Positions 289 through 30,168 of a stretch of DNA of 41,528 nt are shown one piece after another. The stretch is taken from contig MHCP01000028.1 in the NCBI GenBank assembly GCA_001816655.1, positions 99,848-141,375 of the forward strand, written 5' to 3'. Numbering within the stretch: the first letter of the stretch is position 1; every line of letters starts with the position of its first letter. Below the pieces are notes generated by a model. The model saw only the letters and a program-made list of their open reading frames with translations, ran no database searches and had not been told where the DNA came from. The stretch comes from Candidatus Woykebacteria bacterium RBG_13_40_15. Lineage in GTDB: Bacteria > Patescibacteriota > Microgenomatia > Woykebacterales > RBG-16-39-9b. Made by a program: the position numbers and the translations under genes.

Positions 289-945
289 ATGGCTATTATG
301 CTAGACGTAACAAGCGCAAATCCGGCTACAATGTTTGCTTCAATACTTATTTTCCTTATTATCATTGGCTTTGTAATTTCTATGCACGAAGCTGCTCACG
401 CTTTTGCCGCCAATCGTTTAGGCGATCCCACAGCAAGATTACTTGGCCGAATGAGCCTAAATCCCGCAAGTCATATTGATCCAATTGGAACAATTTTGCT
501 GCCTTTGATCCTTTTAATTATGCATGCTCCTGTTTTTGGTTGGGCCAAACCAACACCGATCAATCCTTTCAATTTTCAGTACCCACGGCGCGACACAGCG
601 ATTGTCGCTTTCGCCGGTCCTGCTTCCAATTTTTTGCTGGCGATTTTTCTTTCCCTGATTTTTAGATTAGCCCCAGTTACCATCGCAAGTTCTTTTCTTT
701 TAAACTTCATAGTAATAAACCTGATTCTTGGTATCTTCAATCTAATTCCAATACCACCACTGGACGGGTTCAAAATTTTGGTTGGGGTTTTGCCTAAAGA
801 AGCGGCTGCACAGGTTTCGCTTCTAGAAAGCTATGGCCCAATACTTCTCCTTGTTGTATTACTACTTCTACTACCTATACTCTCACCTATTATATTCCTT
901 GTCCTAAATTTACTTTTAGGTATTTTAACTGGTGTTACTATCTAG
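289..945 (+). CDS. Site-2 protease family (peptidase M50) membrane metalloprotease
   Basis: HEAAH zinc motif in the first TM helix, the NLIPIPPLDG motif typical of M50, and multiple hydrophobic helices. Confidence 0.85.
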   Translation: MAIMLDVTSANPATMFASILIFLIIIGFVISMHEAAHAFAANRLGDPTARLLGRMSLNPASHIDPIGTILLPLILLIMHAPVFGWAKPTPINPFNFQYPRRDTAIVAFAGPASNFLLAIFLSLIFRLAPVTIASSFLLNFIVINLILGIFNLIPIPPLDGFKILVGVLPKEAAAQVSLLESYGPILLLVVLLLLLPILSPIIFLVLNLLLGILTGVTI

Positions 946-967
946 GTACCTAGCCCTAGAAAGAGTC

Positions 968-996
968 TTGCAAATTAACCGTATTTGTGCTTAAAT
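968..996 (+). promoter_or_regulatory. Sigma70-type promoter for the downstream orphan RNA
   Basis: TTGCAA (968-973), a 17-nt spacer, then TTAAAT (991-996). Confidence 0.55.
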
Positions 997-1002
997 GGAC
1001 TT

Positions 1003-1240
1003 GCCTGTTAGAATAAAGGCGCCCCTGCCGCAGGGACACAGGCTTTGAGGTTTATCTTCCTCAATTTTTCTTTCTTGGACGGGTTGACCCGGAGAGTTTC
1101 CGTAGACCGTGGTCTATCGGAACAGGGTTCCCACTTAACAGTCTAGGAGGAAACCGAATAAGCCGCCCGAGGTGCAGGGAGGACTAATTTTTAATAACGG
1201 ATTGAATTAAAGGACCCTTTGTGGGTCTTTTTTGTTTATT
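1003..1240 (+). ncRNA. Candidate structured small RNA of about 230 nt; family not identified
   Basis: It has its own promoter and an intrinsic terminator (stem 1211-1217/1223-1229 plus T-run 1228-1233). It is locally G+C-rich with strong hairpins, for example 1098-1122 (10 bp with one bulge) and CCCTG/CAGGG at 1023-1035. There is no ORF. Confidence 0.5.
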
Positions 1241-1342
1241 TTTTCTAGTTTTGCTAAAATCAGGAGATATGAGGGCTGAGGAAATCGATACTGACAAAAA
1301 CAAGTTAATAATAAATTTGTACGACAAATCCGCAACCCGCAT

Positions 1343-1984
1343 TTAGTTCCTCGGGATTGTTTTCTTTATCTGTGGAAAATCAAAAATGAATAAGAACAAG
1401 AAAGTATATTCATCTCCCGAGAAGCTCACTTCTTTTGAAATTACGTATTCTTGAGCCTTACTAGTTAAATCCTTAAAGTCACCACGAAAGTTTTTACCAA
1501 CATACAATTTTATTGTAACTTTGTCGTTCTTTTCCTTGGGAATCTGAATGTCCTTGACCTGAACAAAAGCACTGTTAGCAGTCTTCGCTTTATTAAAGTA
1601 CTTCTCTAAGCTAGTACCCTCCATATTCAAGGCCATTGTAGTTACATAAGTGAGCTTTAACGGGTCACTGAAGTCAAACTGTTGGTTCTTATAAATATCT
1701 AACTGATCAAGATTCTTGCCAGCAACTCTATTACTCAAAGTTGGATGATTCTTCAGTTGAGCAATGGTGGCTGGAAGTTGCTCTACACCACCATCTTTGA
1801 AACTGGTTACCTTGAAAGTGACACAATTATTTGGCGTGTGTAAGCTGAAGTGACTATCAACAGAGACACCATTCTGAAAGGCAGTTGGGTATGACAATAG
1901 AAAATCCCTTCCCTGATGCTGTTTGGTTAGTTTTATCAGACCTCGGCCGTTTATTTTAATTCTTAATAGATTGTCTTTAATCAT
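1343..1984 (-). CDS. Hypothetical protein; no recognisable motif
   Basis: Long ORF. I prefer the ATG at 1984 over the TTG at 1990 used by the track. No TM helices and no family signature I recognise. Confidence 0.6.
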   Translation of the reverse strand: MIKDNLLRIKINGRGLIKLTKQHQGRDFLLSYPTAFQNGVSVDSHFSLHTPNNCVTFKVTSFKDGGVEQLPATIAQLKNHPTLSNRVAGKNLDQLDIYKNQQFDFSDPLKLTYVTTMALNMEGTSLEKYFNKAKTANSAFVQVKDIQIPKEKNDKVTIKLYVGKNFRGDFKDLTSKAQEYVISKEVSFSGDEYTFLFLFIFDFPQIKKTIPRN

Positions 1985-2055
1985 AACCAATTACAGTGGC
2001 AAAATACACCGAAAGTGAAAACTGGCAAGCCCGGGAGGAATTGCCCGCCTAAATT

Positions 2056-2130
2056 TGGCAGGGCCAAGAGGTATCGAACCCCTGCTTCCGGTTTTGGAGA
2101 CCGGCGTGCTACCACTAACACCATGGCCCT
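2056..2130 (-). tRNA. tRNA-Trp (anticodon CCA)
   Basis: Hand-folded 75-nt cloverleaf: acceptor AGGGCCA/TGGCCCT, anticodon arm CCGGT-CTCCAAA-ACCGG, T-loop TTCGATA, encoded 3' CCA. Confidence 0.9.
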
Positions 2131-2156
2131 AAATTGGCGGGTTGGAGACCGCCGTT

Positions 2157-2222
2157 ATAGATCGCTCCGTAAATAAATTATTCGCTTGAAGCTTAATAAT
2201 TTAGGTACTCTCGCGCTCTGCG
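2157..2222. repeat. Dispersed intergenic repeat, empty-site copy (pairs with 11407-11502)
   Basis: Shares ATAGATCGCTCCGTAA, GGTACTC and TCGCGCTCTGCG blocks in the same order with 11407-11502. Confidence 0.7.
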
Positions 2223-2264
2223 TCGCTAGCTTCCTAAACAATTAACTACGGGCCTACGATCTGC

Positions 2265-2429
2265 TTACTTCACTTCTCTATGCAATATTACTTTCTTACA
2301 GCCTTTACAAAACTTCTTTAGTTCCAACTTCCCTTGTAAGTTTTGTTTATTCTTTTCAGTTGTGTAATTCTGCCTTTTGCACTCTGTGCATTCTAGAATT
2401 ACTAGGTTTCTTGGTCCTTTTTTTGCCAT
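2265..2429 (-). CDS. rpmG: 50S ribosomal protein L33
   Basis: [54 protein letters not shown] is a CxxC...CxxC zinc-ribbon L33. AAGAGG RBS precedes the ATG at 2429. The track ORF is extended upstream into the tRNA. Confidence 0.9.
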
Positions 2430-2452
2430 ATTTACCTCTTTTAATAATAATC

Positions 2453-2527
2453 TGGAGCCGACGGTGGGAATCGGACCCACGACCTAGCCCTTACCAAGGG
2501 CTCGCTCTGCCACTGAGCCACGTCGGC
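2453..2527 (-). tRNA. tRNA-Thr (anticodon GGT)
   Basis: GCCGACG acceptor, anticodon arm AGCCC-TTGGTAA-GGGCT, T-arm GTGGG-TCCGATT-CCCAC, encoded CCA; 75 nt. Confidence 0.9.
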
Positions 2528-2529
2528 AA

Positions 2530-2618
2530 TGGTGCCGAGAGTAGGATTCGAACCTACGTAGCCGCAAGGGCGCCTGTTTTACAGACAGGTGCATTTGACC
2601 ACTCTGCCATCTCGGCAC
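2530..2618 (-). tRNA. tRNA-Tyr (anticodon GTA), long variable arm
   Basis: Anticodon arm CCTGT-CTGTAAA-ACAGG, long variable arm GCGCCCTTGCGGC, T-loop TTCGAAT, encoded CCA; 89 nt. Confidence 0.9.
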
Positions 2619-2628
2619 GTCTCATTCA

Positions 2629-2703
2629 TGGAGCCGACTGTCGGATTCGGACCGACGACCTACTGTTTACAAAACAGTTGCTCTACCGCTGAGCTAAGTC
2701 GGC
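2629..2703 (-). tRNA. tRNA-Thr (anticodon TGT)
   Basis: GCCGACT acceptor, anticodon arm ACTGT-TTTGTAA-ACAGT, T-arm GTCGG-TCCGAAT-CCGAC, encoded CCA; 75 nt. Confidence 0.9.
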
Positions 2704-2718
2704 ATTTTAGCGGAATGG

Positions 2719-2757
2719 ATTATATCTCGCCAGAGAAACAATCCACGAGATGTAATC
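2719..2757 (-). promoter_or_regulatory. Inverted-repeat promoter element, copy A (upstream of the tRNA operon)
   Basis: Minus-strand reading is GATTACATCTCG-TGGATTGTTTCTCTGG-CGAGATATAAT. The TATAAT lies 15 nt upstream of the tRNA 5' end. Homologous to 9875-9913 and 19831-19905. Confidence 0.6.
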
Positions 2758-2840
2758 CTAGCGGATTATATCAGAGTTTACTTATAGCTTCAATTAATTA
2801 TATGTGATTAAAGCTTTTATTTTTGGTATAATTAAAGTTG

Positions 2841-3233
2841 ATGGAAACAGAGCCACTTTCAAAAAAAGTTTTATTGGCTGACGATGACCCTTCTTTTACA
2901 GAACTCTACACATCAATATTCCAATCGTCAGGAATAAATTTTTCGGTCGCCCAAAACGGCCTCGAGACCATAGAAAAAGCTAAAAAGGAACAGCCTACAA
3001 TAATTCTTTTAGATATTATGATGCCTGATATTGATGGTTTCGAAGTCTTAAAAAAGTTGAAGCAAGACCCTGCTACCTCCAATATCCCTGTCTGGATGTT
3101 AACAAACCTTGCCCAGCAACTAAATCAAGAGACAGCTGTTTCTCTGGGAGCAGGGGGTTACATAGTTAAAGCGGAAACTACTCCAAACCAGGTCGTCGCA
3201 AAAGTCAAAGATTACTTTAGCCAACTTCCTTAG
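2841..3233 (+). CDS. Stand-alone response-regulator receiver domain (CheY-like)
   Basis: LLADDDPS, ILLDIMMPDIDG (phospho-acceptor Asp), MLTN and YIVKA motifs. An extended -10 TGGTATAAT (2824-2832) ends 8 nt before the ATG and there is no SD. Confidence 0.85.
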   Translation: METEPLSKKVLLADDDPSFTELYTSIFQSSGINFSVAQNGLETIEKAKKEQPTIILLDIMMPDIDGFEVLKKLKQDPATSNIPVWMLTNLAQQLNQETAVSLGAGGYIVKAETTPNQVVAKVKDYFSQLP

Positions 3234-3278
3234 CTACCTTTACACACCAACTCCTCTATGCTAGAATAATCCGACTAA

Positions 3279-3467
3279 ATGATCAGCAAAGTTTTTAAAT
3301 TTCTTAACGAAGTAGCGGACGAGCTTAAAAAGGTTACCTGGCCTACAAGACAAGAGGCTATTAAAATGACGTTTACTGTAATAGCCGTAAGTGTTGTAGT
3401 TGCGGTTTTCATAGGAAGTCTGGACTTTGTTTTAACCCAATTTATTAGTAAAATCTTAACAAGATAG
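3279..3467 (+). CDS. secE: Preprotein translocase subunit SecE
   Basis: 62 aa with KVTWPTRQE followed by a single TM helix, positioned immediately before nusG. TGCTAGAAT extended -10 at 3259-3267. Confidence 0.85.
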   Translation: MISKVFKFLNEVADELKKVTWPTRQEAIKMTFTVIAVSVVVAVFIGSLDFVLTQFISKILTR

Positions 3468-3486
3468 TAGTAGAGGTTAATTAACG

Positions 3487-4089
3487 ATGGCTAAAGCTAA
3501 AAAAGAAAAGAAAGAGCAGGAACTTAAAAACGAGGAGGCTAAAAAGGAAACAAAAAAAGCCCCAGCCGGAGCTGCTTGGTATGTCGTTCACACTTATTCC
3601 GGCCATGAAAATAAGGTGGCAGCAACACTTAAACAGAAAATTGAAGCCAACAAGTTGCAGGATCGAATTTTTGACGTAATAGTACCAACTCAAGAAAAGA
3701 TTGAAATCCGTGAAGGAAAGAAACAGACTATACGGGAGAGAATTTTTCCCGGTTATGTTCTGGTTCAGATGCGCTTAGACGATGGAACTTGGTATACAGT
3801 CCGCTCAACCGCAGGCGTAACTGGTTTTATAGGGGTTGGCAACAAACCCACCCCATTAGACGAAAATGAAGTTGAAACCATCCAAAGATTTTCCAAGATG
3901 GAAGCACCAACTTATAAGGCTTCTTTCAGTGTCAATGAAGCTGTTAAAATCATTGATGGCCCCTTTGCCGATTTTATTGGAAAAATCGATGAAATTAATG
4001 AGGAAAAAGGCAAGCTTAAAGTTTTAGTATCAATTTTTGGCCGAGAAACCCCAGTTGAGCTTGATTTTCTCCAAGTAGCAAAACTATAA
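3487..4089 (+). CDS. nusG: Transcription termination/antitermination factor NusG with a Lys-rich N-terminal tail
   Basis: [17 protein letters not shown] start and a C-terminal KOW ([14 protein letters not shown]...[17 protein letters not shown]). About 28 aa of K/E-rich extension precede the NGN domain. Confidence 0.92.
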
Positions 4090-4143
4090 AGAATTACAAA
4101 ATTAGCTCAAACTTGTCCTGAGCGAACGAAAGTGAGTCGAAGG

Positions 4144-4566
4144 ATGGCAAAAAAGGTAAAGACAGTGATTAAACTTAATATCCCCGCTGGCGAGGCTACA
4201 GCAGCGCCTCCAGTCGGCCCCGCGTTGGGTCAGCATGGTTTGCCTATAATGGACTTCGTGAAGGCCTTCAATGAACGCACAAGCGACCAAAAAGGCAATA
4301 TCTTGCCTGTAGTCATCACCGTTTTCGAGGATCGCACTCTTTCTTTTATAACAAAGCAACCCCCAGTGGTAGAAATGATCAAAAAAACCTTGAATCTAGA
4401 AAAAGGATCGGGCGTTCCACACAGAGAAAAGGTCGGTAAATTAACAAAAGAGCAGGTTAAACAGATCGCAACAAGTAAAATGCCTGATTTGAATGCCGAT
4501 ACCCTCGAGGCAGCGGAAAAAATCGTTGAGGGTGTAGCTAGAAGTATGGGAGTCGATATTGAATAA
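4144..4566 (+). CDS. rplK: 50S ribosomal protein L11
   Basis: [32 protein letters not shown] is the canonical L11 N-terminus. Start placed at the MAKK ATG (4144) with a GAAGG RBS. Confidence 0.93.
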
Positions 4567-5411
4567 TGGGAAAAATTAGAACCAAAGTAATCGAAACGGC
4601 AATCGAGCCGGAAAAATTGAAAAAAATCGAAGAATTAGAATTAGATAAAGAATCTAAGCCTGAAGAAGAAGGGGAAGTAAAAATCGAGAAAAAGAAGACA
4701 AGAGAGGGTAAGGCAAGGCAAAGAAGCCGCCGTTACAGGGATCTAAACGCAGGTATAGATAAATCAAAGGTATATTCTGTAGAAGAAGCTTCGGAACTTA
4801 TCAAAAAAGCGGCCAACACAAAATTCGACGAAAGTATCGAAGCAAATATCAACCTGGGAGTTTCCCCTGACAAACAAGAGCACCAAGTGAGAACCAGCGT
4901 AATACTCCCCCACCAAGTCGGTAAAAAAATTAAAATTCTCGTTTTTGCTGAAAAAGACGCTGCTGAAATCAAAAAACTCGGCGCTAGCGTTGGAAACGAA
5001 GAAATTTTGAAGGAAATTGAAGGCGGGAAAGTTGGATTCGATAAAATTATCGCCGACTCTTCTTGGATGCCGAAACTGGCAAAAGTGGCCAAGGTTTTGG
5101 GACCAAGGGGCTTGATGCCAAACCCAAAATCAGGCACTGTAACAGAAAATCCAATAGCAGTTTTAAAGGAATTTGCTCAAGGAAAGGTGGAACTACGAGC
5201 CGAAAAAGTTCCTATAATCCATACAGTCATTGGAAAGCGAAGTTTTGAAACCAGGAAACTCTCCGAAAATTTAGCCTCGATAATTACCGCAGTCAGAGCC
5301 GCAAAGCCGGAAGGGTTTAAAAAAGAACTTATCAAAAGCGTTTACGTCTCTTCCACAATGGGCCCATCAGTAAGAATTGATCTATCTTCTCTTCAACCAA
5401 CTGAAAAATAA
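4566..5411 (+). CDS. rplA: 50S ribosomal protein L1 with an N-terminal extension of about 45 aa
   Basis: TAATG overlap with rplK. The canonical L1 region begins near RRYRDLNAGIDKSKVYSVEEA, with MPNPKSGTV later. It is preceded by [44 protein letters not shown]. Confidence 0.9.
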   Translation: MGKIRTKVIETAIEPEKLKKIEELELDKESKPEEEGEVKIEKKKTREGKARQRSRRYRDLNAGIDKSKVYSVEEASELIKKAANTKFDESIEANINLGVSPDKQEHQVRTSVILPHQVGKKIKILVFAEKDAAEIKKLGASVGNEEILKEIEGGKVGFDKIIADSSWMPKLAKVAKVLGPRGLMPNPKSGTVTENPIAVLKEFAQGKVELRAEKVPIIHTVIGKRSFETRKLSENLASIITAVRAAKPEGFKKELIKSVYVSSTMGPSVRIDLSSLQPTEK

Positions 5412-5538
5412 GATCGCTCGTATTCTTAGTCCACAAAGTGGTCGCAGGACGCTTTAGCGGTCTATGCCTCTTCGCTTATCAGTCAGAGCCGAATACTACG
5501 CGTCTTTATTTCTCGCATTGCTCGAAAATAATCGTGGC

Positions 5539-5776
5539 TTGACAAGCAGTCACTTATTGGGTTAAACTCCCGTTTGACCGAAGACAGTAGCCCCTCGATG
5601 AATTCGGGATAAAGTCCCGCAGAGTCGAGCTAAAGCAGAACTCGTTTAGGCTTTATCCTGAACGAAGGGAAGGACTACCGAGGCGTAGTAAATGAATAAC
5701 AAGTGACAAGACAAACGTAACAAGTTTTTAAACTTTTCACCTGTTACCAACGACCTCGGTAACCCGAGGTTTTTTA
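5539..5776 (+). promoter_or_regulatory. Internal promoter plus rplJ (L10) leader ending in an attenuator hairpin
   Basis: TTGACA (5539-5544), 17 nt, TTAAAC (5562-5567). A leader of about 200 nt follows, ending in ACCTCGG-TAAC-CCGAGGT (5753-5770) plus TTTTT. That lies 15 nt before the rplJ start, just ahead of its AGGAG RBS. Confidence 0.6.
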
Positions 5777-5790
5777 GTTTCAGGAGATTT

Positions 5791-6324
5791 ATGAAAATTA
5801 CAAAAGAACAAAAAGTAAAAACAGTAGCCGACCTCAAAGATAAACTTTCGCGAGCTTCCGGTATGGTTTTAGCCAATTACCATGGTCTTTCCGTCCCCCA
5901 AATGCAGGAGTTAAAAAAATCTCTGAAAGAAGAGGATGCGGAATTTGTAATTTCAAAAAACACCCTGATAAGCCGCGCAGCCAAAGAAGCAAAGAAGGAA
6001 ATTCCAAATGAGCAATTAGAAGGTCCAACTGCTATTTTATTTTCTTTTGGGGACGTGCTAGCGAGCGTAAAGAAACTTGCAGATTTTATAAAACAGTATC
6101 AGCTTCCTGAGATCAAAATTGGCGCTATCGAAAACAGAATGCTAACAAAAGAGGAGGTCTTGGATTTGGCCGAAATTCCTTCCAAACAGGAGCTTTATGC
6201 CAAAGTCGTCGGAAGCTTAAACTCTCCTATTTACGGTTTGGTAGCAACTTTAAGAGGAAATTTACGAAACTTAGTTTACGTTTTAAAACAAGTTGAAAAC
6301 TCGAAAGGAGGTGCTACTAATTAA
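5791..6324 (+). CDS. rplJ: 50S ribosomal protein L10
   Basis: Position between rplA and rplL, the N-terminal [15 protein letters not shown]...[16 protein letters not shown] pattern, and an AGGAG RBS. Confidence 0.92.
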
Positions 6325-6326
6325 TT

Positions 6327-7031
6327 ATGGACGAAGAAAAGAAGCCACAAGAAAAAGTTGAATCCTCCTCCGCTCAAAGTACGGAGGACAAGGAAGCTTC
6401 AGAAGAAGCAGAAAAAGCCGAAGGTTCTGCTGAAGAAGCCAAAGAGGCATCCGAAGAAGCAAAAGAAGCCGCAGAGGAAGCTAAAGAAGAGGTAAAGGAA
6501 GAAGTTGCTGAAGTTAAAGAGGAGGTAAAAGAAACAGTTGCTGAGGCTAAAGAGAATCCGCCAGCTGGCGGAAAGGCCGAAGCTCCAAAACCGGAACCTA
6601 AAAAAGACCTGCCTGCCGGCAAGGCAGGAATAAAAGTTACTGGCAAATTGGCCGATATCATTAAGGATCTTGAAGGACTGTCAGTTCTTGAGTTAGCTGA
6701 TTTAGTAAAGGCTTTGGAAGACCGTTTTGGCGTAAGTGCTTCAGCACCAGTCGCGGTAGCAGCCGCGGGAGCAGCTCCTGCTGGAGGAGGCGCTGAAGGT
6801 GCACCAGAGGAAGGCCAAACTACTTTCAACGTAATGTTGGCCGATTCAGGGGCTAATAAGATAGGTGTAATAAAGGTAGTTAGGGAACTAGTTCCTACAC
6901 TTGGACTTAAAGAAGCAAAAGACCTAGTTGACGCCGCTCCAAAGCAGGTTTTGGAAGGTGTAAATAAAGAGACGGCAAACGAGGCTAAATCCAAGTTAGA
7001 GGCTGCTGGAGCAAAAGTGGAGTTAAAGTAA
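6327..7031 (+). CDS. rplL: 50S ribosomal protein L7/L12 with an acidic low-complexity N-terminal extension of about 100 aa
   Basis: The C-terminal 125 aa are canonical ([29 protein letters not shown]...KVELK). The first 100-107 codons are an open E/K/A-rich frame. An in-frame TTG at 6648 is a possible alternative start. Confidence 0.88.
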
Positions 7032-7054
7032 GCACGAACTGAAATAGAAAAGCA

Positions 7055-7085
7055 AAAAGCCCCCATTTGGGGGTTTTTTGTTTTC
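7055..7085 (+). terminator. Rho-independent terminator of the rplJL operon
   Basis: AAAGCCCCC-ATTT-GGGGGTTTTTTG immediately after the rplL stop. Confidence 0.85.
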
Positions 7086-9874: not shown

Positions 9875-9913
9875 ATTATATCTCGCTTAGAGAAACAAGC
9901 GCGAGATGTAATC
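9875..9913 (-). promoter_or_regulatory. Inverted-repeat promoter element, copy B (upstream of DUF2207)
   Basis: Minus-strand reading is GATTACATCTCGC-GCTTGTTTCTCTAA-GCGAGATATAAT. The TATAAT ends 6 nt before the ATG at 9868, a leaderless geometry. Confidence 0.6.
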
Positions 9914-10978: not shown

Positions 10979-10998
10979 CCTGCCTGACGGCAGGCAGG
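10979..10998. repeat. GC-rich palindromic micro-element, prototype copy
   Basis: CCTGCCTG-ACGG-CAGGCAGG is a perfect 8-bp stem. Near-identical copies lie at 6608-6628 and 19881-19900. Longer or degenerate relatives lie at 11460-11490, 22098-22118, 30901-30945 and 39658-39677. Confidence 0.75.
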
Positions 10999-11046
10999 TC
11001 AATATTGTTCATATACGGCTCGTGCTGCAATTTATGGCGGGTCTGC

Positions 11047-11109
11047 GCCCCGAACCAAGAATTTCTTTCTGGTTCGGGGCTTGACAACTTATTTTCTATT
11101 GTGATACTT
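11047..11109 (+). promoter_or_regulatory. 11-bp perfect hairpin abutting the promoter of the HTH gene
   Basis: GCCCCGAACCA-12 nt-TGGTTCGGGGC (11047-11080) is directly followed by TTGACA (11081-11086), 17 nt, then ATACTT (11104-11109). Confidence 0.5.
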
Positions 11110-11166
11110 TTAAGACCACTTAATTATAAGAAAGGTAGTGAACTGTCCAGAAAGGATATCTTTCTT

Positions 11167-11367
11167 ATGTCTCTTGGAGATGAATTACCAGAGCTATTGA
11201 CTGTAAAAGAAGTCGCAACTTTCTTGAGGGTTTCTCCACTTACAATCAAACGCTGGGGCAAGCGTGGTAAACTTCCCGCCATCAGAATCAACGCACGCGG
11301 TGATAGACGGTACAAAAAGGAAGCTGTATTGTGGTTGTTAGGTGAGATGAAGAAAGAGGTTGCTTAA
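11167..11367 (+). CDS. Excisionase-family (MerR-superfamily) helix-turn-helix DNA-binding protein, 66 aa
   Basis: LLTVKEVATFLRVSPLTIKRWGKRGKLPAIRINARGDRRYKKEAV is the classic excisionase-type HTH pattern. Start placed at the ATG at 11167. The upstream part of the track ORF runs through the hairpin and promoter. Confidence 0.75.
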   Translation: MSLGDELPELLTVKEVATFLRVSPLTIKRWGKRGKLPAIRINARGDRRYKKEAVLWLLGEMKKEVA

Positions 11368-11406: not shown

Positions 11407-11502
11407 ATAGATCGCTCCGTAACTTCAGAATTTTCGCCTACTCAATTCTTCAGGTACTCCCCGCCTGCCAAAGCTTTAGCGGCGGGCAGGTCGCGCTCTG
11501 CG
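11407..11502. repeat. Dispersed intergenic repeat, filled-site copy carrying a 31-nt GC palindrome
   Basis: Same blocks as 2157-2222, but with CCCGCCTGCCAAAGCTTTAGCGGCGGGCAGG (11460-11490) between GGTACTC and TCGCGCTCTGCG. Confidence 0.7.
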
Positions 11503-18815: not shown

Positions 18816-19820
18816 CTACCTCTTAATAATGCTCTTTCTGTACAGATCAATGTTTTCCAGTACCATGCCTGTTCCATAAACTACACACAACATTGGATCT
18901 TCCGCAACATGACACGGCACACCTAAACTTTCAGTAAAAAATTTATCAATGTTTTTAAGTAAGGATGTACCTCCACTCATTACGATTCCCTTATCTATGA
19001 TATCACTCGCAAGCTCAGGTGGTGTCTGTTCTAAAACTTGTTTAACTGCGTCTAATATTTGATTCAGTACTGGCAAGATGGCATCAGTAGCTTGGCTACT
19101 CTTTAAATCGACTGATTTTGGCAAGCCAGTAATACTATCCCTTCCTCTAATCTCCATAGTCGTATCCTTTTCAAGAGCCGTAGCACTTCCAATAGTTAAT
19201 TTGATTTCCTCAGCTGTCCGCTCACCAATTATCAAATTAAATTTCCTTCTTGCGTAAAGGGCGATCGCCTCATCAATTTTATTACCCGCTACCTTAGCAC
19301 TGTTATAAACTACAACTCCACCAAGCGAGATAACAGCAGCATCGGTCGAACCACCCCCAATATCAACTATCATGTTTCCCGAAGGGGTCGCAATTGGAAT
19401 CTTTGCTCCAATAGCTGCGGCGAGAGGCTCATCAATCAGGTACGCGGTTTTTGCGCCGGCTGAGACTGTTGCATCTAAAACCGCACGCCTTTCTACGCTT
19501 GTTATCCCTGCGGGAACACAGACCATTACTTCTGGTTTAAACAGGCGGAATCGGCCAGCAACTTTGTCTAGGAAAAAACTAAGCATTGCTTCAGTAACTA
19601 TGTAATCAGCAATAACCCCATCTCGAAGTGGTCTGGAAGCTTCTATTTCGTCTGGAGTACGTCCAAGCATCTCCTTTGCCGTATTCCCCACTGCTAAGAT
19701 CCCACCTGTTTCTGAAGATACGGCAACAACCGTCGGTTCATTTAAAACCACACCCTGACCTTCCAAATAAACTAAGGAATTAGCTGTACCTAGGTCAATC
19801 CCGATTTTTTTGGAAAACAT
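18816..19820 (-). CDS. mreB: Rod-shape determining actin homologue MreB
   Basis: IGIDLGTANSLVY, the DGVIAD region and IVDIGGGSTD phosphate and adenosine motifs; 334 aa. Confidence 0.92.
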   Translation of the reverse strand: MFSKKIGIDLGTANSLVYLEGQGVVLNEPTVVAVSSETGGILAVGNTAKEMLGRTPDEIEASRPLRDGVIADYIVTEAMLSFFLDKVAGRFRLFKPEVMVCVPAGITSVERRAVLDATVSAGAKTAYLIDEPLAAAIGAKIPIATPSGNMIVDIGGGSTDAAVISLGGVVVYNSAKVAGNKIDEAIALYARRKFNLIIGERTAEEIKLTIGSATALEKDTTMEIRGRDSITGLPKSVDLKSSQATDAILPVLNQILDAVKQVLEQTPPELASDIIDKGIVMSGGTSLLKNIDKFFTESLGVPCHVAEDPMLCVVYGTGMVLENIDLYRKSIIKR

Positions 19821-19830
19821 GATGGCTTCT

Positions 19831-19905
19831 ATTATATCTTGTCAAAGAAACAATAGAAAGCTTCGCTTCTACGCGAGATGCCTGCCTGCCGGCAGGTAGG
19901 TAATC
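19831..19905 (-). promoter_or_regulatory. Inverted-repeat promoter element, copy C (upstream of mreB), interrupted by two insertions
   Basis: ATTATATCTTGT...AAGAAACAA...GCGAGATG[20-nt CCTGCCTGCCGGCAGGTAGG]TAATC. The TATAAT (rc of 19831-19836) ends 10 nt before the mreB ATG. Confidence 0.55.
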
Positions 19906-20032
19906 TCACTATCATATATTTTGTTCAAAAAGTTTATTAGTCTACAAGATTTTGATTTTTGTAAGTAGTTCAGAAATATCTCAAATGGATCAGATTACTA
20001 ACTAAATATGGTTTTTAACAATCAGCGACTCA

Positions 20033-20061
20033 TTGTACGTTCGTAAAAAATAGAGTAAAAT
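20033..20061 (+). promoter_or_regulatory. Promoter of the PEGA-domain gene (leaderless geometry)
   Basis: TTGTAC, 17 nt, TAAAAT (20056-20061), then 7 nt to the ATG at 20069. No SD. Confidence 0.55.
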
Positions 20062-20068
20062 TTTGCTT

Positions 20069-21205
20069 ATGAATAATCTTTCCAAAATGAAGAGCCTTTT
20101 TGGGCTTCTTACTTTTCTGATAGTTACTTTTATTTTAACAACAGGTTTAATATTTTACGCCAAGGGTTACAGGTTTAATTTAAAGGGGCATTCAGTTGAT
20201 CCTACTGGAATTGTTACAGTAAAATCAAAACCTTCAGGTGCATCAGTTTATATCAACGGGGAGAAAAAGGGACTAACTGATCTTGACATAACCGATCTTT
20301 CTCCAAATAAATACACTATCAAAATAGTAAAGGAGGGTTTTTTCCCTTGGGAAAAGGAAATCGAGGTTAAAAAGGAGGCAGTTAAACTAGTTGAAGTTGT
20401 TCTTATACCCACCGCACCAAGCTTAAAAGCGCTTACATTTACAGGAGTAAGCAGCTTTGTCTTGGCTCCAGATTTAAGCAAGATAGTTTTTTCAGTGACT
20501 GAAAAAGGGTACGCAGGAATCTGGGCGTTGAGCCTTTCAACCCGCCAACTTATAAATATACTTTCTCCAAAACAACTAACTAAAATAGTTACAGATACTA
20601 GCGAAACCTCCTTTTCAACTGCCCCCTACAGCTTCGCTCCTGATGGAAAAAAGATATTGGTAAAGGCGCCCTCACAAAATCCTAGATATTTTATTTTGGA
20701 CCCTTCTACAACAAATGAATCGCCACAAGAAATAAGTGCGGATGAAACCAAAAAGATCGAAACTAGTTGGGAAAACAAAACAAAAGAAATAGAAGTAACC
20801 GAGTTGAAAGCTTTGGGTAGTGAGGCGCAAGAACTAGCTACCACCTTAAGCCAAATCTCTTTTTCGCCGGATAAAACTAAATTTATTGGAACAAACAAGG
20901 AGGGGGTTACATTTCTTTTTGACTCAAAGCTAGAAAGAAACTCCTCTGAAAAGGCTCAGAGCCTTACTTTACCACTCGCAAATAATTATATTTGGTATCC
21001 AGATAGTAAGCACCTAGTTCTAGTTAATAATGATTCAATTTCGCTTATAGAAACTGATGGGACAAATCACACCGTAATTTATACAGGTAATTTCGACCAT
21101 AACTTAGTCGCCCCTACAAACGATGGGTCAAAAATTATAATTCTTACAACTCTCAATTCATCTCCGAGCAAACTGCCCAATCTGTACGCAATCGAATTAC
21201 GCTAA
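20069..21205 (+). CDS. Membrane-anchored PEGA-domain protein with TolB-like beta-propeller repeats
   Basis: N-terminal TM helix and a PEGA motif (SKPSGASVYINGEKKG...YTIKIVKEGF). Repeated xAPDxSKIVF, FAPDGKKILV and FSPDKTKFIG blade-like motifs follow. Confidence 0.75.
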   Translation: MNNLSKMKSLFGLLTFLIVTFILTTGLIFYAKGYRFNLKGHSVDPTGIVTVKSKPSGASVYINGEKKGLTDLDITDLSPNKYTIKIVKEGFFPWEKEIEVKKEAVKLVEVVLIPTAPSLKALTFTGVSSFVLAPDLSKIVFSVTEKGYAGIWALSLSTRQLINILSPKQLTKIVTDTSETSFSTAPYSFAPDGKKILVKAPSQNPRYFILDPSTTNESPQEISADETKKIETSWENKTKEIEVTELKALGSEAQELATTLSQISFSPDKTKFIGTNKEGVTFLFDSKLERNSSEKAQSLTLPLANNYIWYPDSKHLVLVNNDSISLIETDGTNHTVIYTGNFDHNLVAPTNDGSKIIILTTLNSSPSKLPNLYAIELR

Positions 21206-21217
21206 ACTAAACAAGAG

Positions 21218-21904
21218 TTAGATTTTATCAAGCTTGGCCGTGATAATAAGCCGGCGCAGGCTACTGCCTGGTGGATCACAGGTTTGAAGAGTGAGAATGG
21301 GGTCTTTTGAAACTTCCGATAAATATCTCGTGTCAGTCGCTTCTACAACTTGTTTATTGGTAACAATATAATCATATCTTTGTCCTTGATAAAAAGTTGT
21401 CACCCTATCTCCTACCTCTAGCTTTCTAAGTAAATAAAAGACGCTGTTATACTTTTTTGCTTCGAGGGCGTTTATCGCTGAGTGGGCAAATAAAAAGACA
21501 TTGTTATTACCGTTTTTTGTTGATCCAGGAAAAGCTGTCCCTTTAGCATGTGCGACTCCTTTTGAAAGTGCAGCGATATATTCTGGGTAGTTTGCTGCGT
21601 TCACGTTGGCAACTACAGGCGCATTTACATCAATTTTTTCAATAACAATACCGAAATTAGTATCGACAGGAGCTAAACTTAGTGGTGGGAGAGTTTTCTT
21701 TGGCTTGGAAGTGTTAATTTCTTCAGTAACAACTGTTTTTTTACCGTAATGCGAGTGCCACCAATACCATATTTCCTTTTCGATATATGGAGAAAAGGCA
21801 AAGAAGGAGAAAAGAATACCAGATATAATAAGTATGTTGGCAACAGTTCTTATCGCCAGAAAAACCCAAAATCTTTTTCTTTTTGGCAATTTAAGTTTTA
21901 TCAT
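21218..21904 (-). CDS. Sortase-family transpeptidase
   Basis: N-terminal TM anchor, conserved His (FLFAHS), the TLQTC active-site motif and a downstream Arg (LRRLII). Confidence 0.8.
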   Translation of the reverse strand: MIKLKLPKRKRFWVFLAIRTVANILIISGILFSFFAFSPYIEKEIWYWWHSHYGKKTVVTEEINTSKPKKTLPPLSLAPVDTNFGIVIEKIDVNAPVVANVNAANYPEYIAALSKGVAHAKGTAFPGSTKNGNNNVFLFAHSAINALEAKKYNSVFYLLRKLEVGDRVTTFYQGQRYDYIVTNKQVVEATDTRYLSEVSKDPILTLQTCDPPGSSLRRLIITAKLDKI

Positions 21905-22011
21905 AGTTTTTAAACTGAAATAACTGGCGCCCCTGGGAGGACTAGAATACTCCGCATCCTGCGACCACTTCGTGGGCTACGAACTCCAACCTTTCCTTAG
22001 GAAAAAGACGA

Positions 22012-22088
22012 TGGCGCCGATGGAGAGACTCGAACTCTCAACCTTACCCTTAGGACGGGTCTGCTCTGTCCAATTGAGCTACATCGGC
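22012..22088 (-). tRNA. tRNA-Arg (anticodon CCT)
   Basis: GCCGATG acceptor, anticodon loop GTCCTAA, T-arm GAGAG-TTCGAGT-CTCTC, encoded CCA; 77 nt. TGCTAAAAT extended -10 (rc of 22122-22130) lies upstream. Confidence 0.85.
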
Positions 22089-22158
22089 AGTGTAGGCTTG
22101 CCTGACAACGGCCAGGTTTGAATTTTAGCACAATGTGGATTAGAATAAAAGGATTCCG

Positions 22159-22233
22159 CGGGGTGTAGCTCAGAGGAAGAGCGCTGCGTTCGGGACGCAG
22201 AGGTCGCACGTTCAAGTCGTGTCACCCCGACCA
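22159..22233 (+). tRNA. tRNA-Pro (anticodon CGG)
   Basis: CGGGGTG/CACCCCG acceptor, anticodon arm CTGCG-TTCGGGA-CGCAG, T-loop TTCAAGT, encoded CCA; 75 nt. Confidence 0.88.
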
Positions 22234-22289
22234 GCTTAAAAATCCTTTCTTTTTTACTCCGAATTTTATTTCTGCTAAAATTAAGTTGC

Positions 22290-23558
22290 ATGAAGAAAAA
22301 AATTATTTTCGGCTCAATTATAATTTTGTCAGTATTACTAATTGGGCTTGCCTTTCTTCTTTATCATAGAAATTCCTCAAACAATAGCACTCCAACTGCC
22401 CAAAACACAAAAGTAGCAAGTTTTAGCAATATTATTGATGCCAATAATCAATTTGCCTTAGATTACTATTCCAAATTAAAAGGTTCGGAGAAAGGAAACA
22501 TCTTTTTTTCACCATTTAGTATCTCAAGCGCATTAGCAATGACCTATGAAGGAGCAAAGGGGCAAACAGCTAGCGAAATGAAGGGGTTATTTTACTTTCC
22601 TGACATTAGTATTTTAAGAAATGAATATGCTGCTTTATTCGAAGAGCTCAACAAAACCGACAAAAAATATACCCTTAGTACCGCTAACGCCCTTTGGGTA
22701 GAACAAGATTATAAATTTCTGGCCGATTATCTTCAGAGAATAGAAAAATATTACGCCGGTAAAGCTACAAATCTTGATTTCAAAAAAGATCCTGAACGCT
22801 CTCGCATCGAGATAAATAACTGGGTAGAAAAGCAGACACAAGATAAAATAAAAAATTTAATACCATCCGGAGTGATTGACTCATTAACGCGATTAGTTCT
22901 AACCAACGCAATTTATTTTAAAGGAGACTGGGTAAAAGCTTTTAATGAAACGGATACAAATGATGAGAATTTCACCGTTAGCGAAGGTAATAATGTGAAG
23001 GTCCCAATGATGAGCCGAACAGACAAAGATGCCCTCTTTAACTATAGCGAGAATAAGGACCTTCAAATCCTTGAGCTGCCCTATTCTGGAGAGGAATTAT
23101 CAATGTTGATTCTACTACCAAAGGGAAAAAATCTAAACAAAGTAGAAAGCGAGTTAACAACTAAGAAACTAGCAGAGTGGGAAAAAGGTTTTAAAAATGA
23201 AAGAGTTGATATATATATTCCAAAGTTTAAATTCGAAACTAATTACTTTATGGCTGATGATCTGAAGGTGATGGGAATGTCAACCGCTTTCAGCTCAAGA
23301 GCAGATTTTTCAGGGATGGATGGAACAAGAAATCTTTACATCGGACAAGTGATCCACAAAGCATTTATCGAGGTAAACGAAAAAGGAACTGAAGCGGCGG
23401 CCGCTACTGCAGTAGAAATGAAATTTACGTCAGCACCTGGAAATGAGGAACCTAAAATTCCAATCTTCAGGGCAGATCACCCATTTATATTCCTGATTCA
23501 GCAGAAGACTTCAGGTAATATATTGTTTATGGGAAGAGTTACTAACCCTGAACAGTAA
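22290..23558 (+). CDS. Serpin-family protease inhibitor with an N-terminal signal or anchor
   Basis: FSPFSISSALAMTYEGAKGQT and NAIYFKGDWVKAF motifs, hinge and reactive-centre loop GTEAAAATAVEM, and C-terminal FRADHPFIFLI. Confidence 0.88.
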   Translation: MKKKIIFGSIIILSVLLIGLAFLLYHRNSSNNSTPTAQNTKVASFSNIIDANNQFALDYYSKLKGSEKGNIFFSPFSISSALAMTYEGAKGQTASEMKGLFYFPDISILRNEYAALFEELNKTDKKYTLSTANALWVEQDYKFLADYLQRIEKYYAGKATNLDFKKDPERSRIEINNWVEKQTQDKIKNLIPSGVIDSLTRLVLTNAIYFKGDWVKAFNETDTNDENFTVSEGNNVKVPMMSRTDKDALFNYSENKDLQILELPYSGEELSMLILLPKGKNLNKVESELTTKKLAEWEKGFKNERVDIYIPKFKFETNYFMADDLKVMGMSTAFSSRADFSGMDGTRNLYIGQVIHKAFIEVNEKGTEAAAATAVEMKFTSAPGNEEPKIPIFRADHPFIFLIQQKTSGNILFMGRVTNPEQ

Positions 23559-23599
23559 AATTTACCTATTTCGTTCTGGCATTTTCCTTTGTTTTATGT

Positions 23600-23628
23600 T
23601 TGACAACCAAACACTCTTTATTTATAGT
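23600..23628 (+). promoter_or_regulatory. Consensus promoter of the pilin-like gene (leaderless geometry)
   Basis: TTGACA, 17 nt, TATAGT (23623-23628), then 7 nt to the ATG at 23636. No SD. Confidence 0.65.
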
Positions 23629-23635
23629 TTAATTA

Positions 23636-24070
23636 ATGAGCTGCTCTCTCTCCAAAAAGAAAAACCGAGGTTTTACACTCGTTGAACTTTTGATTGTAAT
23701 TGCTATTATTGCTATTTTGATTTCCATCGGTTTTGCTTCCTATGGCAGAGTTCAAAAAAATAGCCGTGACACGCAAAGAAGATCTGATTTAAGAAGTGTC
23801 GCCGGGGCTTTGGAGCAATACTACTCAGATTTTAATAGGTATCCACCAATGTTAGACACTTTAAAAGATGATGTTTTACCTTCAGGATCTCACGTTACAT
23901 ATTTGAAGGATATACCAACGAATCCAACAACCAGCACGCAACCTACCTACAACTTAACTGGAGGTGGAACTCAATCTTACTGCTTAGGTTACCCCTTAGA
24001 AACGGTAACAAATGATAAAAGCTGCGGTGCTACAAGTGGGTTGGGTATTGTCTTAACACCTCAGGATTAG
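23636..24070 (+). CDS. Type IV pilin / pseudopilin-like protein (prepilin N-terminal cleavage/methylation motif)
   Basis: KKKNRGFTLVELLIVIAIIAILISIGF is the class III signal peptide (G/FTLxE) with its hydrophobic helix. Confidence 0.88.
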   Translation: MSCSLSKKKNRGFTLVELLIVIAIIAILISIGFASYGRVQKNSRDTQRRSDLRSVAGALEQYYSDFNRYPPMLDTLKDDVLPSGSHVTYLKDIPTNPTTSTQPTYNLTGGGTQSYCLGYPLETVTNDKSCGATSGLGIVLTPQD

Positions 24071-24152
24071 ATTTCTACTATGCTTTTTAGCCTACGACCT
24101 ACCTACTAACAGTCAGAGGTAGCCGCAAACGAGCTTCCATAGCAAAATATTA

Positions 24153-24716
24153 TTACTCCCCTGCTCGTTCATACGTATGGATTTCGCTTTCATGAAACCA
24201 AAGTTTTTCTTCAAACTCTGCTTCCTCTTTTGAACCAGAAACATGAACAATATTTTCCACACCTCGCTTTTCCGCATTTGCATAGGCTGGCGAATCTGTT
24301 GAAAAATCACCCCGGATAGTACCTGGAGGAGCATTCACCGGCACCGTCGGACCAGCAATTGCCCTAGCGTTATCAACTGCGTGCCTACCCTCAAGTAAGA
24401 TTGCTACAAGTGGGCCAGATCCCACATAATCGATTAGCCACCCTCGAATCATTCTACCTAATTCCAAGGGGTCACTTGTCCCTAAATCTTTATCCGAATC
24501 CTTCCCGTACTCCTTATAGGTTTTTAGAGTCTTCTTGCCTAAACTAATTAAAAAGTCTTCCTTGTCCGTATAATGCTTTTTTAAATGGTCCTCCTGCGCC
24601 CACATCATCTTAATCGCCACAATTTTTAGGCCCATTCTTTCATACCTACCAACCACCTCTCCAACCAAACCGCGTCTCACCCCATCCGGTTTTACTAAAA
24701 CAACAGCACGCTCCAT
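24153..24716 (-). CDS. ndk: Nucleoside diphosphate kinase, long form with internal insertions
   Basis: VLVKPDGVRRGLVGEVVGRYE, GTIRGDF and NIVHVSGS (catalytic His). About 35 extra residues follow the HY motif compared with 140-150-aa NDKs. Confidence 0.85.
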   Translation of the reverse strand: MERAVVLVKPDGVRRGLVGEVVGRYERMGLKIVAIKMMWAQEDHLKKHYTDKEDFLISLGKKTLKTYKEYGKDSDKDLGTSDPLELGRMIRGWLIDYVGSGPLVAILLEGRHAVDNARAIAGPTVPVNAPPGTIRGDFSTDSPAYANAEKRGVENIVHVSGSKEEAEFEEKLWFHESEIHTYERAGE

Positions 24717-27754: not shown

Positions 27755-28609
27755 TTACTTAGTTTGGACTTCAAAGCCACTACCGTTGCTTATAACTTCT
27801 ATTGTTCCATTTTTATCTGTTCTGTATATCTTTGATCCCATCTTTATTAATAAATAGAGAGTATTTTGATTGGGATGCCCGTAATTATTTTTCGCGCCGA
27901 CAGAAACCACGCTAAGATTAGGAGATAATAATCTAACAAACTGTTCCTTGAGTGAGGTTTTTGATCCATGATGGGGCACCTTAAATACCTCAATGTGATT
28001 AATGTTACTTGTATATGGTTGGGTACCTTGATCGGCGTCGCCAGTTAAAAGAGCATCAAATTTCTTAAATGTCACTTGGACTACAATAGAGCCTTGGTTT
28101 AAATTTTTAGTTTCAAAATGATTTATCCTCGGCCATAATACCGTAATCGTAGTTGAGTCTGGAAACCTCATAGAGTCGCCTTGGGAAACAATGGTAGATG
28201 AAATATTTTTCTCCTTAATTATTTTTTCCCAATCTTTAAAAATTTTCGAGTCGTTCGAATCACCATTGATCCACAAATTACTAATCTGATATTCTTTGAC
28301 CACTCTTATTAGGCCTGTTAAATGATCAGCTTCAGGGTGGGTGAGAATAAGTAGATCTATTCTTTTTGAGTAGAAAGGTAAATCAGTCCCTAGGTAATTT
28401 AGGACTTTATCATTTGGCCCCCCATCAATCAAAATTCGATACCCCTTGGGGGTCTCTAAAAGAATTGAATCTCCCTGCCCTACGTCGTAGAATTTCAAAT
28501 GAAGATTGCTGTCCGGAAGAGAAAAATAAAAATTCCAAATTAAAATATTTCCGACAATCAAGCTTAAAAAAGCCACCTTTATCTTATTTTGATTTAGCCA
28601 ATCGACCAT
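27755..28609 (-). CDS. comEC: ComEC C-terminal module: TM helix plus metallo-beta-lactamase domain, as a separate ORF
   Basis: FYDVGQGDSILL, LILTHPEADHLTGL (HxHxDH-type motif) and KVPHHGS. Confidence 0.8.
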   Translation of the reverse strand: MVDWLNQNKIKVAFLSLIVGNILIWNFYFSLPDSNLHLKFYDVGQGDSILLETPKGYRILIDGGPNDKVLNYLGTDLPFYSKRIDLLILTHPEADHLTGLIRVVKEYQISNLWINGDSNDSKIFKDWEKIIKEKNISSTIVSQGDSMRFPDSTTITVLWPRINHFETKNLNQGSIVVQVTFKKFDALLTGDADQGTQPYTSNINHIEVFKVPHHGSKTSLKEQFVRLLSPNLSVVSVGAKNNYGHPNQNTLYLLIKMGSKIYRTDKNGTIEVISNGSGFEVQTK

Positions 28610-29813: not shown

Positions 29814-30168
29814 AAGTAGCTTCCCCTAGGACTTTTTTATTTAGAAGATCCTCAATTGACTCGTATGGCCGGTTTTCTATAATTTTTTCAGCTCTAACAG
29901 GACCAATTCCAGGCAGTGAATCAAGTTCTTTTTCTGTCGCAGTGTTAATATTAATTTTGTCCGATATCTCGGCTTGAACATTGTTGGTGGCTTGTGTTTG
30001 ACTTTTTTCTCCTGCAATAAACTGAGGCTCTGAATTGTTTGAAAATAGTTTTCCAGCGGAAAGCCCAACACCAATGAAAGCAAGGCCCGCTAAGGCTAAA
30101 ATTAGGGAAACTTGATACTCTTTAACTAAACTAAAAGCCCTTTCTACTCCCTCTTTTTGAGCGGCCAT
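29779..30168 (-). CDS. comEA: ComEA-type DNA receptor (TM anchor plus helix-hairpin-helix)
   Basis: ININTATEKELDSLPGIGPVRAEKIIENRPYESIEDLL is the tandem HhH motif. N-terminal TM helix. Confidence 0.85.
   Translation of the reverse strand: MAAQKEGVERAFSLVKEYQVSLILALAGLAFIGVGLSAGKLFSNNSEPQFIAGEKSQTQATNNVQAEISDKININTATEKELDSLPGIGPVRAEKIIENRPYESIEDLLNKKVLGEATFENIKDKIATE

Follow-up and report, generated by a model that had tools for sequence, protein, structure and literature searches.

Short GC-rich palindromes at filled and empty sites in a Woykebacteria-like genome: a probable family of very small insertion elements

When two copies of a repeat agree to the base on either side of a junction and only one of them holds a short GC-rich palindrome there, has the palindrome been inserted, and is it, or was it once, mobile? 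The question arises twice in the stretch of DNA analysed here (the window: 41,528 nt of contig MHCP01000028.1 from Candidatus Woykebacteria bacterium RBG_13_40_15), where an earlier note had compared the copies of a 66-nt repeat and of an inverted-repeat promoter element and had proposed that the palindromes inside them moved in. The window has a G+C content of about 40% and comes from a tiny uncultured Woykebacteria-like bacterium; its genes include tRNAs, nusG-rplKAJL, mreB, glycosyltransferases, competence proteins, aminoacyl-tRNA synthetases and an F-type ATPase operon. A pilin-like ORF at 23636-24070 gives a weak match to ComP_DUS, the DNA-uptake-sequence receptor pilin (E = 3e-4, under the curated cut-off), and comEC and comEA homologues are found near it at 28584-30168.

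Three MAGs are the closest public genomes, with shared genes 65-75% identical in nucleotides: Candidatus Woykebacteria GWB1_45_5 (MHCO01), Woykebacteria LejiaB_43_27 (JBBDPN01) and DASVHF01, the last of which carries a 'Nanoarchaeia' label, yet has repeats and gene order in common with the window. The public runs X1, X2, X4 and X5 were used as assembled Logan contigs only, with contexts known as 30-base ends; X1 is possibly the source sample, X2 is possibly not independent of X1, and X4 belongs to a different study. An exact-protein look-up found no further assembly with an identical MreB or HTH ORF protein, and the MreB relatives in metagenome contigs, with identities of up to 71%, come without either host repeat and thus offer no orthologous sites.

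Two palindromes and their empty counterparts

The first comparison concerns the 66-nt repeat and involves the following features.

2157-2222, plus strand: host repeat copy 1, empty (GGTACTC followed directly by TCGCGCTCTGCG), between rpmG and tRNA-Trp
11407-11502, plus strand: host repeat copy 2, filled; an AT-rich hairpin, adjoined by the 31-mer, lies within the module TAGATCGC..GCGCTCTGCG
11460-11490, unstranded: 31-nt imperfect GC-rich palindrome CCCGCCTGCCAAAGCTTTAGCGGCGGGCAGG, a cargo-less family member with termini CCCGCCTGC...GCGGGCAGG

In the alignment, AGGTACTC runs straight into TCGCGCTCTGCG in the empty copy, whereas in the filled copy the same two sequences are separated by CCCGCCTGCCAAAGCTTTAGCGGCGGGCAGG; the insert is 31 nt long, the junction does not slide and no duplication is present. 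The clean 31-nt insertion that the earlier note had read from these copies is thus confirmed in coordinates and letters. Its description of the flanks as colinear holds for the junctions, which are base-exact, but has to be qualified further out, since the two copies are alike only in a 17-nt 5' block and a 20-nt 3' block, and the AT-rich hairpin between these end blocks differs, with both arms changed and pairing preserved. The GGTACTC junction is also empty in the family members L084:1615 and L120:6309 and in an X1 contig with the same AT-rich host repeat (GGTACTC followed directly by TGACGCTCTGCGACC), and the right junction of the 31-mer is covered by X1 and X2 contigs. The module of this host repeat is TAGATCGC-TTC-GCGCTCTGCG, of which there is a sister form, TAGAAAGC-TTC-GCTTTCT, with both stem arms changed together. 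Both the AT-rich hairpin and the 31-mer are positioned where the small loop of the module would be, and the minimum-energy fold of the base module does not predict the proposed triloop hairpin stem.

The AT-rich hairpin itself (window 2173-2208 and 11423-11456; L084:1615, L120:6309) keeps its stem by way of two-arm changes and has a conserved loop, TTCGC..CTCAAT, and it may be a structured RNA or DNA element of its own. Close to the empty copy, the acceptor strand of tRNA-Trp finishes with CCTGCCA, and this 3' end is overlapped by CCCGCCTAAATTTGGCAGG at 2044-2062, which represents a decayed member of the family next to the tRNA or else a chance terminator hairpin.

The second comparison is between three units of the promoter element.

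2719-2757, plus strand: promoter unit A, empty, upstream of the tRNA-Thr/Tyr/Thr operon
9875-9913, plus strand: promoter unit B, empty, upstream of a DUF2207 gene
19831-19905, plus strand: promoter unit C, filled; left arm containing TATAAT (19833-19838, minus strand); extra module TAGAAAGCTTCGCTTCTA in the loop (19854-19871); right arm CGCGAGATG (19872-19880); TAATC (19901-19905)
19881-19900, unstranded: 20-nt palindrome CCTGCCTGCCGGCAGGTAGG, which interrupts the right arm of unit C upstream of mreB

Units A and B read CGAGATG followed directly by TAATC, and unit C aligns as CGAGATG, CCTGCCTGCCGGCAGGTAGG and TAATC; the sequence GCGAGATG plus TAATC, unbroken at 2745-2757 and 9901-9913, is broken by the 20-mer at 19881-19900. 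The insert is 20 nt long, its junction slides by one base (G), and an X1 Logan contig reproduces 19700-20093 with zero differences. Here, too, alignment bears out the clean insertion in copy C that had been noted against A and B, both in position and in letters, and the remark that neither site has a visible target duplication stands, as the alignments have none at 11460 or 19881. Unit C furthermore holds a second extra piece, the TAGAAAGCTTCGCTTCTA module in its large loop, which is absent from the earlier note. As single-stranded DNA the empty unit is predicted to fold, in a calculation on unit B, as CGCGAGAT-GTA-ATCTTGCG, which would place the insertion point after the first base of the loop, G^TA.

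The promoter repeat has some further properties. In the window (2719-2757, 9875-9913, 19831-19905) and at L171:6802-6892 and L158:6583-6690 the minus-strand TATAAT lies 6-18 nt before the downstream start, which is that of a tRNA or an ATG, and this spacing suggests, as far as can be judged from sequence, leaderless or near-leaderless transcripts. In the related genomes the units are arranged in tandem, with GATTATA common to neighbours. About one third of the units have a nested module, TAGAAAGC-TTC-GCTTTCTGCGTCG..CTCCTA, in their large loop, always after AGAAACAA; it is found at 19854-19871 in the window, at L136:7457, L142:4623 (minus strand), L178:3087 and L179:1201 (minus strand), and in reverse orientation in L133 and L159. 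Compared with the sister form TAGATCGC-TTC-GCGCTCT both arms of its stem differ; its ends form a short inverted pair, TAGRAR/YTYCTA, and it has the look of a further small insertion element.

The palindrome family, its sites and its longer relatives

The two inserts belong to a family with three further members in the window, one of them decayed.

6608-6628, unstranded: 21-nt palindrome CCTGCCTGCCGGCAAGGCAGG, read in frame as DLPAGKAG within the N-terminal extension of rplL
10979-10998, unstranded: 20-nt palindrome CCTGCCTGACGGCAGGCAGG, upstream of a MerR/HTH_17-type ORF at 11005-11367
22097-22116, unstranded: decayed family member CTTGCCTGACAACGGCCAGG, between tRNA-Arg(CCT) and tRNA-Pro(CGG)

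When all members are aligned, the conserved parts are termini of 9-10 nt, CC(C/T)GCC(T/C)GC(C) on the left and (G)GC(G/A)GGC(A/G)GG on the right, between which lie variable centres of 0 to 24 nt; sizes are 20, 21, 31, 36, 40 and 42 nt, and 107 nt with tRNA cargo. In the longer members two mismatches between the arms, C opposite A and T opposite G, are retained throughout, and the left and right ends are therefore distinguishable. Chance is excluded by the abundance of such sequences, since the window has five dyads of the form CC[CT]GCC..GGC[AG]GG against a mean of 0.02 and a maximum of 1 in 100 first-order Markov simulations, and 30 occurrences of CCTGCC against 13.4 expected. A sequencing or adapter artefact was likewise considered and rejected, as the copies are found in frame in conserved genes and in independent assemblies and runs, and vary in sequence.

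Several members recur as identical or nearly identical units. The 31-mer is found in at least six contexts including the window, the others being in X1, X4 and X5 at 90% identity or more and with ends 0-3 bases from those at 11460/11491; they comprise a promoter unit (X1), a host-repeat-like sequence (X4) and at least three unrelated contexts (X4, X5). The rplL 21-mer recurs exactly in X5 in another A-rich context, and the perfect 20-mer occupies 42 sites in 35 stretches of IMG/VR viral contigs, mostly GC-rich, a number far above chance, as any particular 20-mer should turn up once in 10^12 bases. One viral contig of 29.5 kb (L215, L222 and L223) has six perfect 20-mers, two of them inside long inverted repeats 1.4 kb apart, and in another (L228, 3915-4142) at least ten 21-nt units, CCATGCCTACCGGCAGGCAGG, form a tandem array that runs to the contig end; the family is apparently open to tandem amplification. 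Reading the ORFs between paired copies in the GC-rich phage contigs was uninformative, as all six frames are open.

How often the host sites are occupied was determined for the promoter repeat by a scan of genome contigs with the left half of the unit as query, which found true members only in the three related genomes; the census covers 204 kb of these genomes plus the window and includes 28 right arms. In 24 of these the arm is unbroken and reads (C/T)(G/A)AGAT(G/A) followed directly by (T/C)AATC, and the remaining four are filled, every one at the bond GATG^TAA. The fillings are CCTGCCTGCCGGCAGGTAGG in the window, CCTGCCTGTCGGCAGACAGG in JBBDPN01 and the 36-mer CCCGCCTGCAACGCTAGGCGTAGCATTGCGGGCAGG twice in MHCO01, that is, three different inserts at one bond: two 20-mers and one 36-mer in two copies. 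The X4 contigs add two promoter units with a 20-mer at the same bond and one long-form unit that is empty, and in X1 the 31-mer occupies this bond in a variant unit, ATATCCTGCAAGGAAACAATACGCAGAATG^TAATAC, whose counterpart in MHCO_L136 is empty. Scoring the copies of both host repeats in the window and the related genomes as filled or empty, a check which the earlier note had proposed, accordingly finds most copies of both to be empty.

Orthologous loci differ in the same way. MHCO_L133 is syntenic with window 19444-24435, and its unit directly upstream of mreB is empty (GCGCGAGATG followed directly by CAATCTCGTG); in the same locus the spacer between tRNA-Arg(CCT) and tRNA-Pro(CGG) is without the 21 nt that hold CTTGCCTGACAACGGCCAGG and otherwise aligns base for base, the junction being ambiguous over 3 nt (AGG). 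In DASV_L128, the syntenic counterpart of window 456-7031, rplL has the same acidic N-terminal extension without the DLPAGKAG residues, while its rplA has a perfect CCTGCCTGCCGGCAGGCAGG in frame (NLPAGRQG) that window rplA is without; since the linkers are too diverged in DNA, the genes being 65-75% identical, these two comparisons are of presence and absence and not of base-exact empty sites. The differences at mreB, the tRNA spacer, rplL and rplA show that the set of occupied sites is particular to each genome. The copies in ribosomal-protein linkers have lengths divisible by three. The long acidic or lysine-rich N-terminal extensions of rplL and rplA (window 6327-6645 and 4566-4700), which house the in-frame copies, are themselves conserved in DASV_L128.

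Some relatives with the same termini are larger and carry a tRNA gene. In MHCO_L092 a 107-nt element (5736-5842) with the family termini contains a complete tRNA-Val(CAC) gene and itself occupies the anticodon loop of a second tRNA-Val(CAC) gene, which is now split; when the flanks are joined a tRNA-like call is obtained with an anticodon loop one base short. The 31-mer consists of the first 15 and last 15-16 bases of this element. L005, a metagenome contig with an MreB about 70% identical to that of the window, holds two nested elements with the same termini, and removal of the inner one restores a tRNA-Pro(CGG) call, this tRNA-Pro being the cargo of the outer element. Viral contigs (L196, L219, L226) have the 20-mer within tRNA loops, namely the variable loop in tRNA-Met genes and a D loop. 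A different arrangement is seen in L128 of DASVHF01 (6800-7070), where a resident tRNA-Tyr is split and an intact replacement tRNA-Tyr lies between the halves together with a TAGATCGC-type module.

Target sites, possible mechanism and alternative explanations

As for a target motif, for which the earlier note had suggested a search, the left flanks (GATG, ACTC, CTTT, AAGA) have no 4-mer in common, and the one regularity is a T/C bias in the base next to the element: of 78 half-sites, 33 have T (20% expected, p = 1e-5) and 27 have C (30% expected). Sites in coding regions follow A-runs. Viral sites lie in a loop with a stem of at least 5 bp in 7 of 42 cases against 6% of control positions, a modest enrichment, and some are the centres of other palindromes (L217, L222, L215), while no hairpin is found at sites 10979, 6608, L131 and L169. 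Insertion into hairpin loops as a general law was consequently dropped, in view of the weak viral enrichment and of the base module of the 66-nt repeat, which lacks the triloop fold. The preference for hairpin loops is rather to be seen as a lineage-specific tendency with the promoter repeat as a real hot spot, and insertion tends, not universally, towards folded or single-stranded DNA.

Taken at the level of sequence, the comparisons demonstrate exact insertion without duplication into repeats, intergenic DNA and ribosomal-protein linkers. We consider it reasonably probable that each palindrome is a copy of a very small insertion element and that these elements form one family, for which we infer a targeting of folded DNA and an enzyme acting in trans. 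The elements would be very small and non-coding, with fixed, slightly asymmetric inverted termini, and would be inserted as exact units without target duplication. Insertion would favour DNA that folds on itself, such as the 3-nt loop of the promoter repeat and, for the cargo-bearing relatives, tRNA anticodon loops; a protein encoded elsewhere would recognise the folded termini, cut and join, and this step would probably take place on single-stranded DNA, at replication or DNA uptake.

Small stand-alone GIY-YIG nucleases are a candidate for this enzyme and only that. Motif searches of the window and of 331 kb of 20-mer-bearing viral loci found no GIY-YIG sequence, and Pfam scans of 29 of the larger window ORFs found no nuclease or transposase families. 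In 139 kb of MHCO01 there are three GIY-YIG ORFs of 72-85 aa (PF01541; L184 2030-2520, L134 6305-6627, L189 496-880), one of which lies between two tRNA-like genes, by eye tRNA-Ser(GCU) and tRNA-Ser(UGA), behind a GC-rich imperfect hairpin, and another directly after a promoter repeat unit; none of the three is flanked by a family member. A search of PDB sequences with one of them gave UPF0213 proteins (1zg2, 1ywl) as nearest. We raise only tentatively the wider possibility of an undescribed class of prokaryotic mobile DNA with asymmetric hairpin termini of about 10 nt, exact insertion into loops, tRNA cargo and circulation among candidate-phyla bacteria and phages, in which the palindromes would be the smallest members; its loop targets would be tRNA anticodon loops, promoter hairpin triloops and loops of other copies, and its enzyme would be structure-specific, possibly a minimal GIY-YIG nuclease together with a host ligase.

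The short palindromes might alternatively be leftover ends of larger elements with tRNA or nuclease cargo that have lost their interior, and so not be mobile themselves. This fits the composition of the 31-mer, which is identical to the L092 element reduced to its outermost bases, 15 on the left and 16 on the right, and it fits the 36-, 40- and 42-nt members, whose centres are unrelated to one another, as independent internal deletions predict. However, identical short forms recur, the 31-mer in six or more contexts, the 21-mer in two and the perfect 20-mer at the 42 viral sites, and independent deletions would not yield identical products; furthermore, a tRNA-sized insert in the frame of rplL or rplA would have been lethal before its deletion, and clear pairs of cargo-bearing termini were found at only two of the loci examined, L092 and L005. 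We therefore regard this origin as unlikely. Still less can be said for passive spread, in which a small number of old insertions, perhaps a single one, would have passed between host repeats through gene conversion or duplication with no dedicated transposition; we consider this distinctly improbable. The promoter units do have 12-45 nt of common flank and a tandem arrangement, and the two filled L142 units hold identical 36-mers in the same orientation, so that the recurrence at one promoter-repeat bond could in part reflect copying between units. Such spread does not, however, account for members in mutually non-homologous contexts (rplL, rplA, the tRNA spacer, the 66-nt repeat, phage contigs and tRNA loops), for three different inserts at one bond across genomes, or for the empty orthologous mreB unit.

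An ancestral filled form, from which the hairpin was precisely deleted to leave the short forms, is an alternative that the earlier note itself had named; palindromes are unstable during replication, and beyond this general instability no specific support for such deletion was found here. Against it stand the 24 empty arms to four filled, the empty mreB orthologue, the mostly empty members of both host families in four genomes, the absence of flanking direct repeats that could guide an exact deletion, and inserts at the same site that vary between genomes. On the ratio of empty to filled arms, the empty mreB orthologue and the missing direct repeats, insertion is by sequence comparison far more economical, and we hold the ancestral filled form to be very improbable. 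It is hardly credible, finally, that the palindromes are selected functional sites, operators or terminators, which arose in place and were never inserted: several copies do lie near promoters or gene ends and stable hairpins are predicted to form, but the differences from paralogues and orthologues are clean indels rather than gradual convergence, copies lie in frame within ribosomal-protein genes and within disabled tRNA genes, and the same 20-mer is present in unrelated GC-rich phage contigs. The notion in the earlier note that the palindromes were inserted and are, or once were, mobile is thus supported by hosts that are mostly empty, by empty orthologues, by different members at one bond and by unrelated contexts.

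If, as the insertion reading has it, units of 20-40 nt truly move, they are among the smallest mobile DNAs known, and they show how nested hairpin mosaics are assembled in promoter regions and provide a route for extra peptides into essential proteins of ultra-reduced bacteria. A one-bond target in a 3-nt loop and relatives that carry tRNAs are furthermore a concrete substrate and product for a biochemical hunt for the enzyme, and recognition of the family in annotation would account for many odd in-frame inserts, split tRNA genes and assembly breaks in candidate-phyla bacteria and phages.

Relation to known systems

A literature search found no description of the sequence or of the phenomenon, and the family is best placed by comparison with known repeats. 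It resembles the REP, BIME and REPIN sequences of Proteobacteria, which are associated with RAYT proteins (Y1 HUH, IS200/IS605-like), in that these are also short imperfect GC-rich palindromes of 20-40 nt in many copies, non-coding, inserted without target duplication, marked by conserved mismatches that distinguish the arms, and found in mosaics with other repeats. However, the present family has no GTAG-type head and its flanks differ at every site, all copies are single with no inverted doublets, copies are also found in frame in genes and in tRNA loops and may carry tRNA cargo, and one sequence is common to different phyla and phage contigs; a RAYT-type family was not found by Pfam scans of the larger ORFs of the window. 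With MITEs the family has in common terminal inverted repeats, here with 9-10 nt conserved, and a variable centre, but the target-site duplication is absent at 11460, 19881 and the other filled promoter units, where at most a short junction ambiguity is seen (1-3 nt over all sites). At the loci examined the only longer elements with the same ends carry a tRNA gene and not a transposase. Elements of the IS200/IS605 family have hairpin ends, cause no target duplication and insert 3' of a fixed 4-5-nt target. The first two properties are shared here, as is likely a preference for single-stranded DNA, whereas a fixed target of 4-5 nt is in disagreement with left flanks that have no common 4-mer.

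In-frame insertion into essential protein genes of a reduced genome also recalls the Rickettsia palindromic elements that Ogata and colleagues reportedly described in 2000 as palindromic repeats in frame in essential genes. These are said to be tolerated as an extra surface peptide, to measure about 100-150 nt and to be confined to one genus, while the present family measures 20-42 nt and is common to candidate-phyla bacteria and phages.

A further parallel is found in Neisseria, where SsnA, a small GIY-YIG nuclease, cleaves dRS3/NTS hairpin repeats and Ssn-related motifs in single-stranded form (Chenal et al. 2025, PMC11893778), a study that shows cleavage and an effect on transformation, not insertion. 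The likeness lies in a hairpin repeat of about 20-30 nt in many copies in genomes with very small stand-alone GIY-YIG nucleases, and by analogy a structure-specific enzyme acting on single strands is a plausible partner of the palindromes. The SRM motif of that system, HGTCWY N0-2 YYVSBRH N0-5 WNVSBRG N0-2 RNCYNB (PMC11893778), nevertheless matches no palindrome copy, its one match in the window, at 37029-37055, being unrelated. The GC clusters of yeast and fungal mitochondria are flanked by AG or ACT direct repeats reminiscent of target duplications (Wu and Hao 2015, PMC4478555). They too are GC-rich hairpins in AT-rich DNA with presence/absence polymorphism, merging and shuffling and no known mobilising enzyme, but here flanking repeats are absent, the host is bacterial and the sequences are unrelated. 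Since at least one defining feature of each of REP/REPIN-RAYT, SRM, GC clusters and IS200/IS605 was looked for and is missing from these palindromes, the family is set apart from all four, as it is from the Rickettsia elements, and we file it under the general kind of small palindromic elements that encode nothing themselves.
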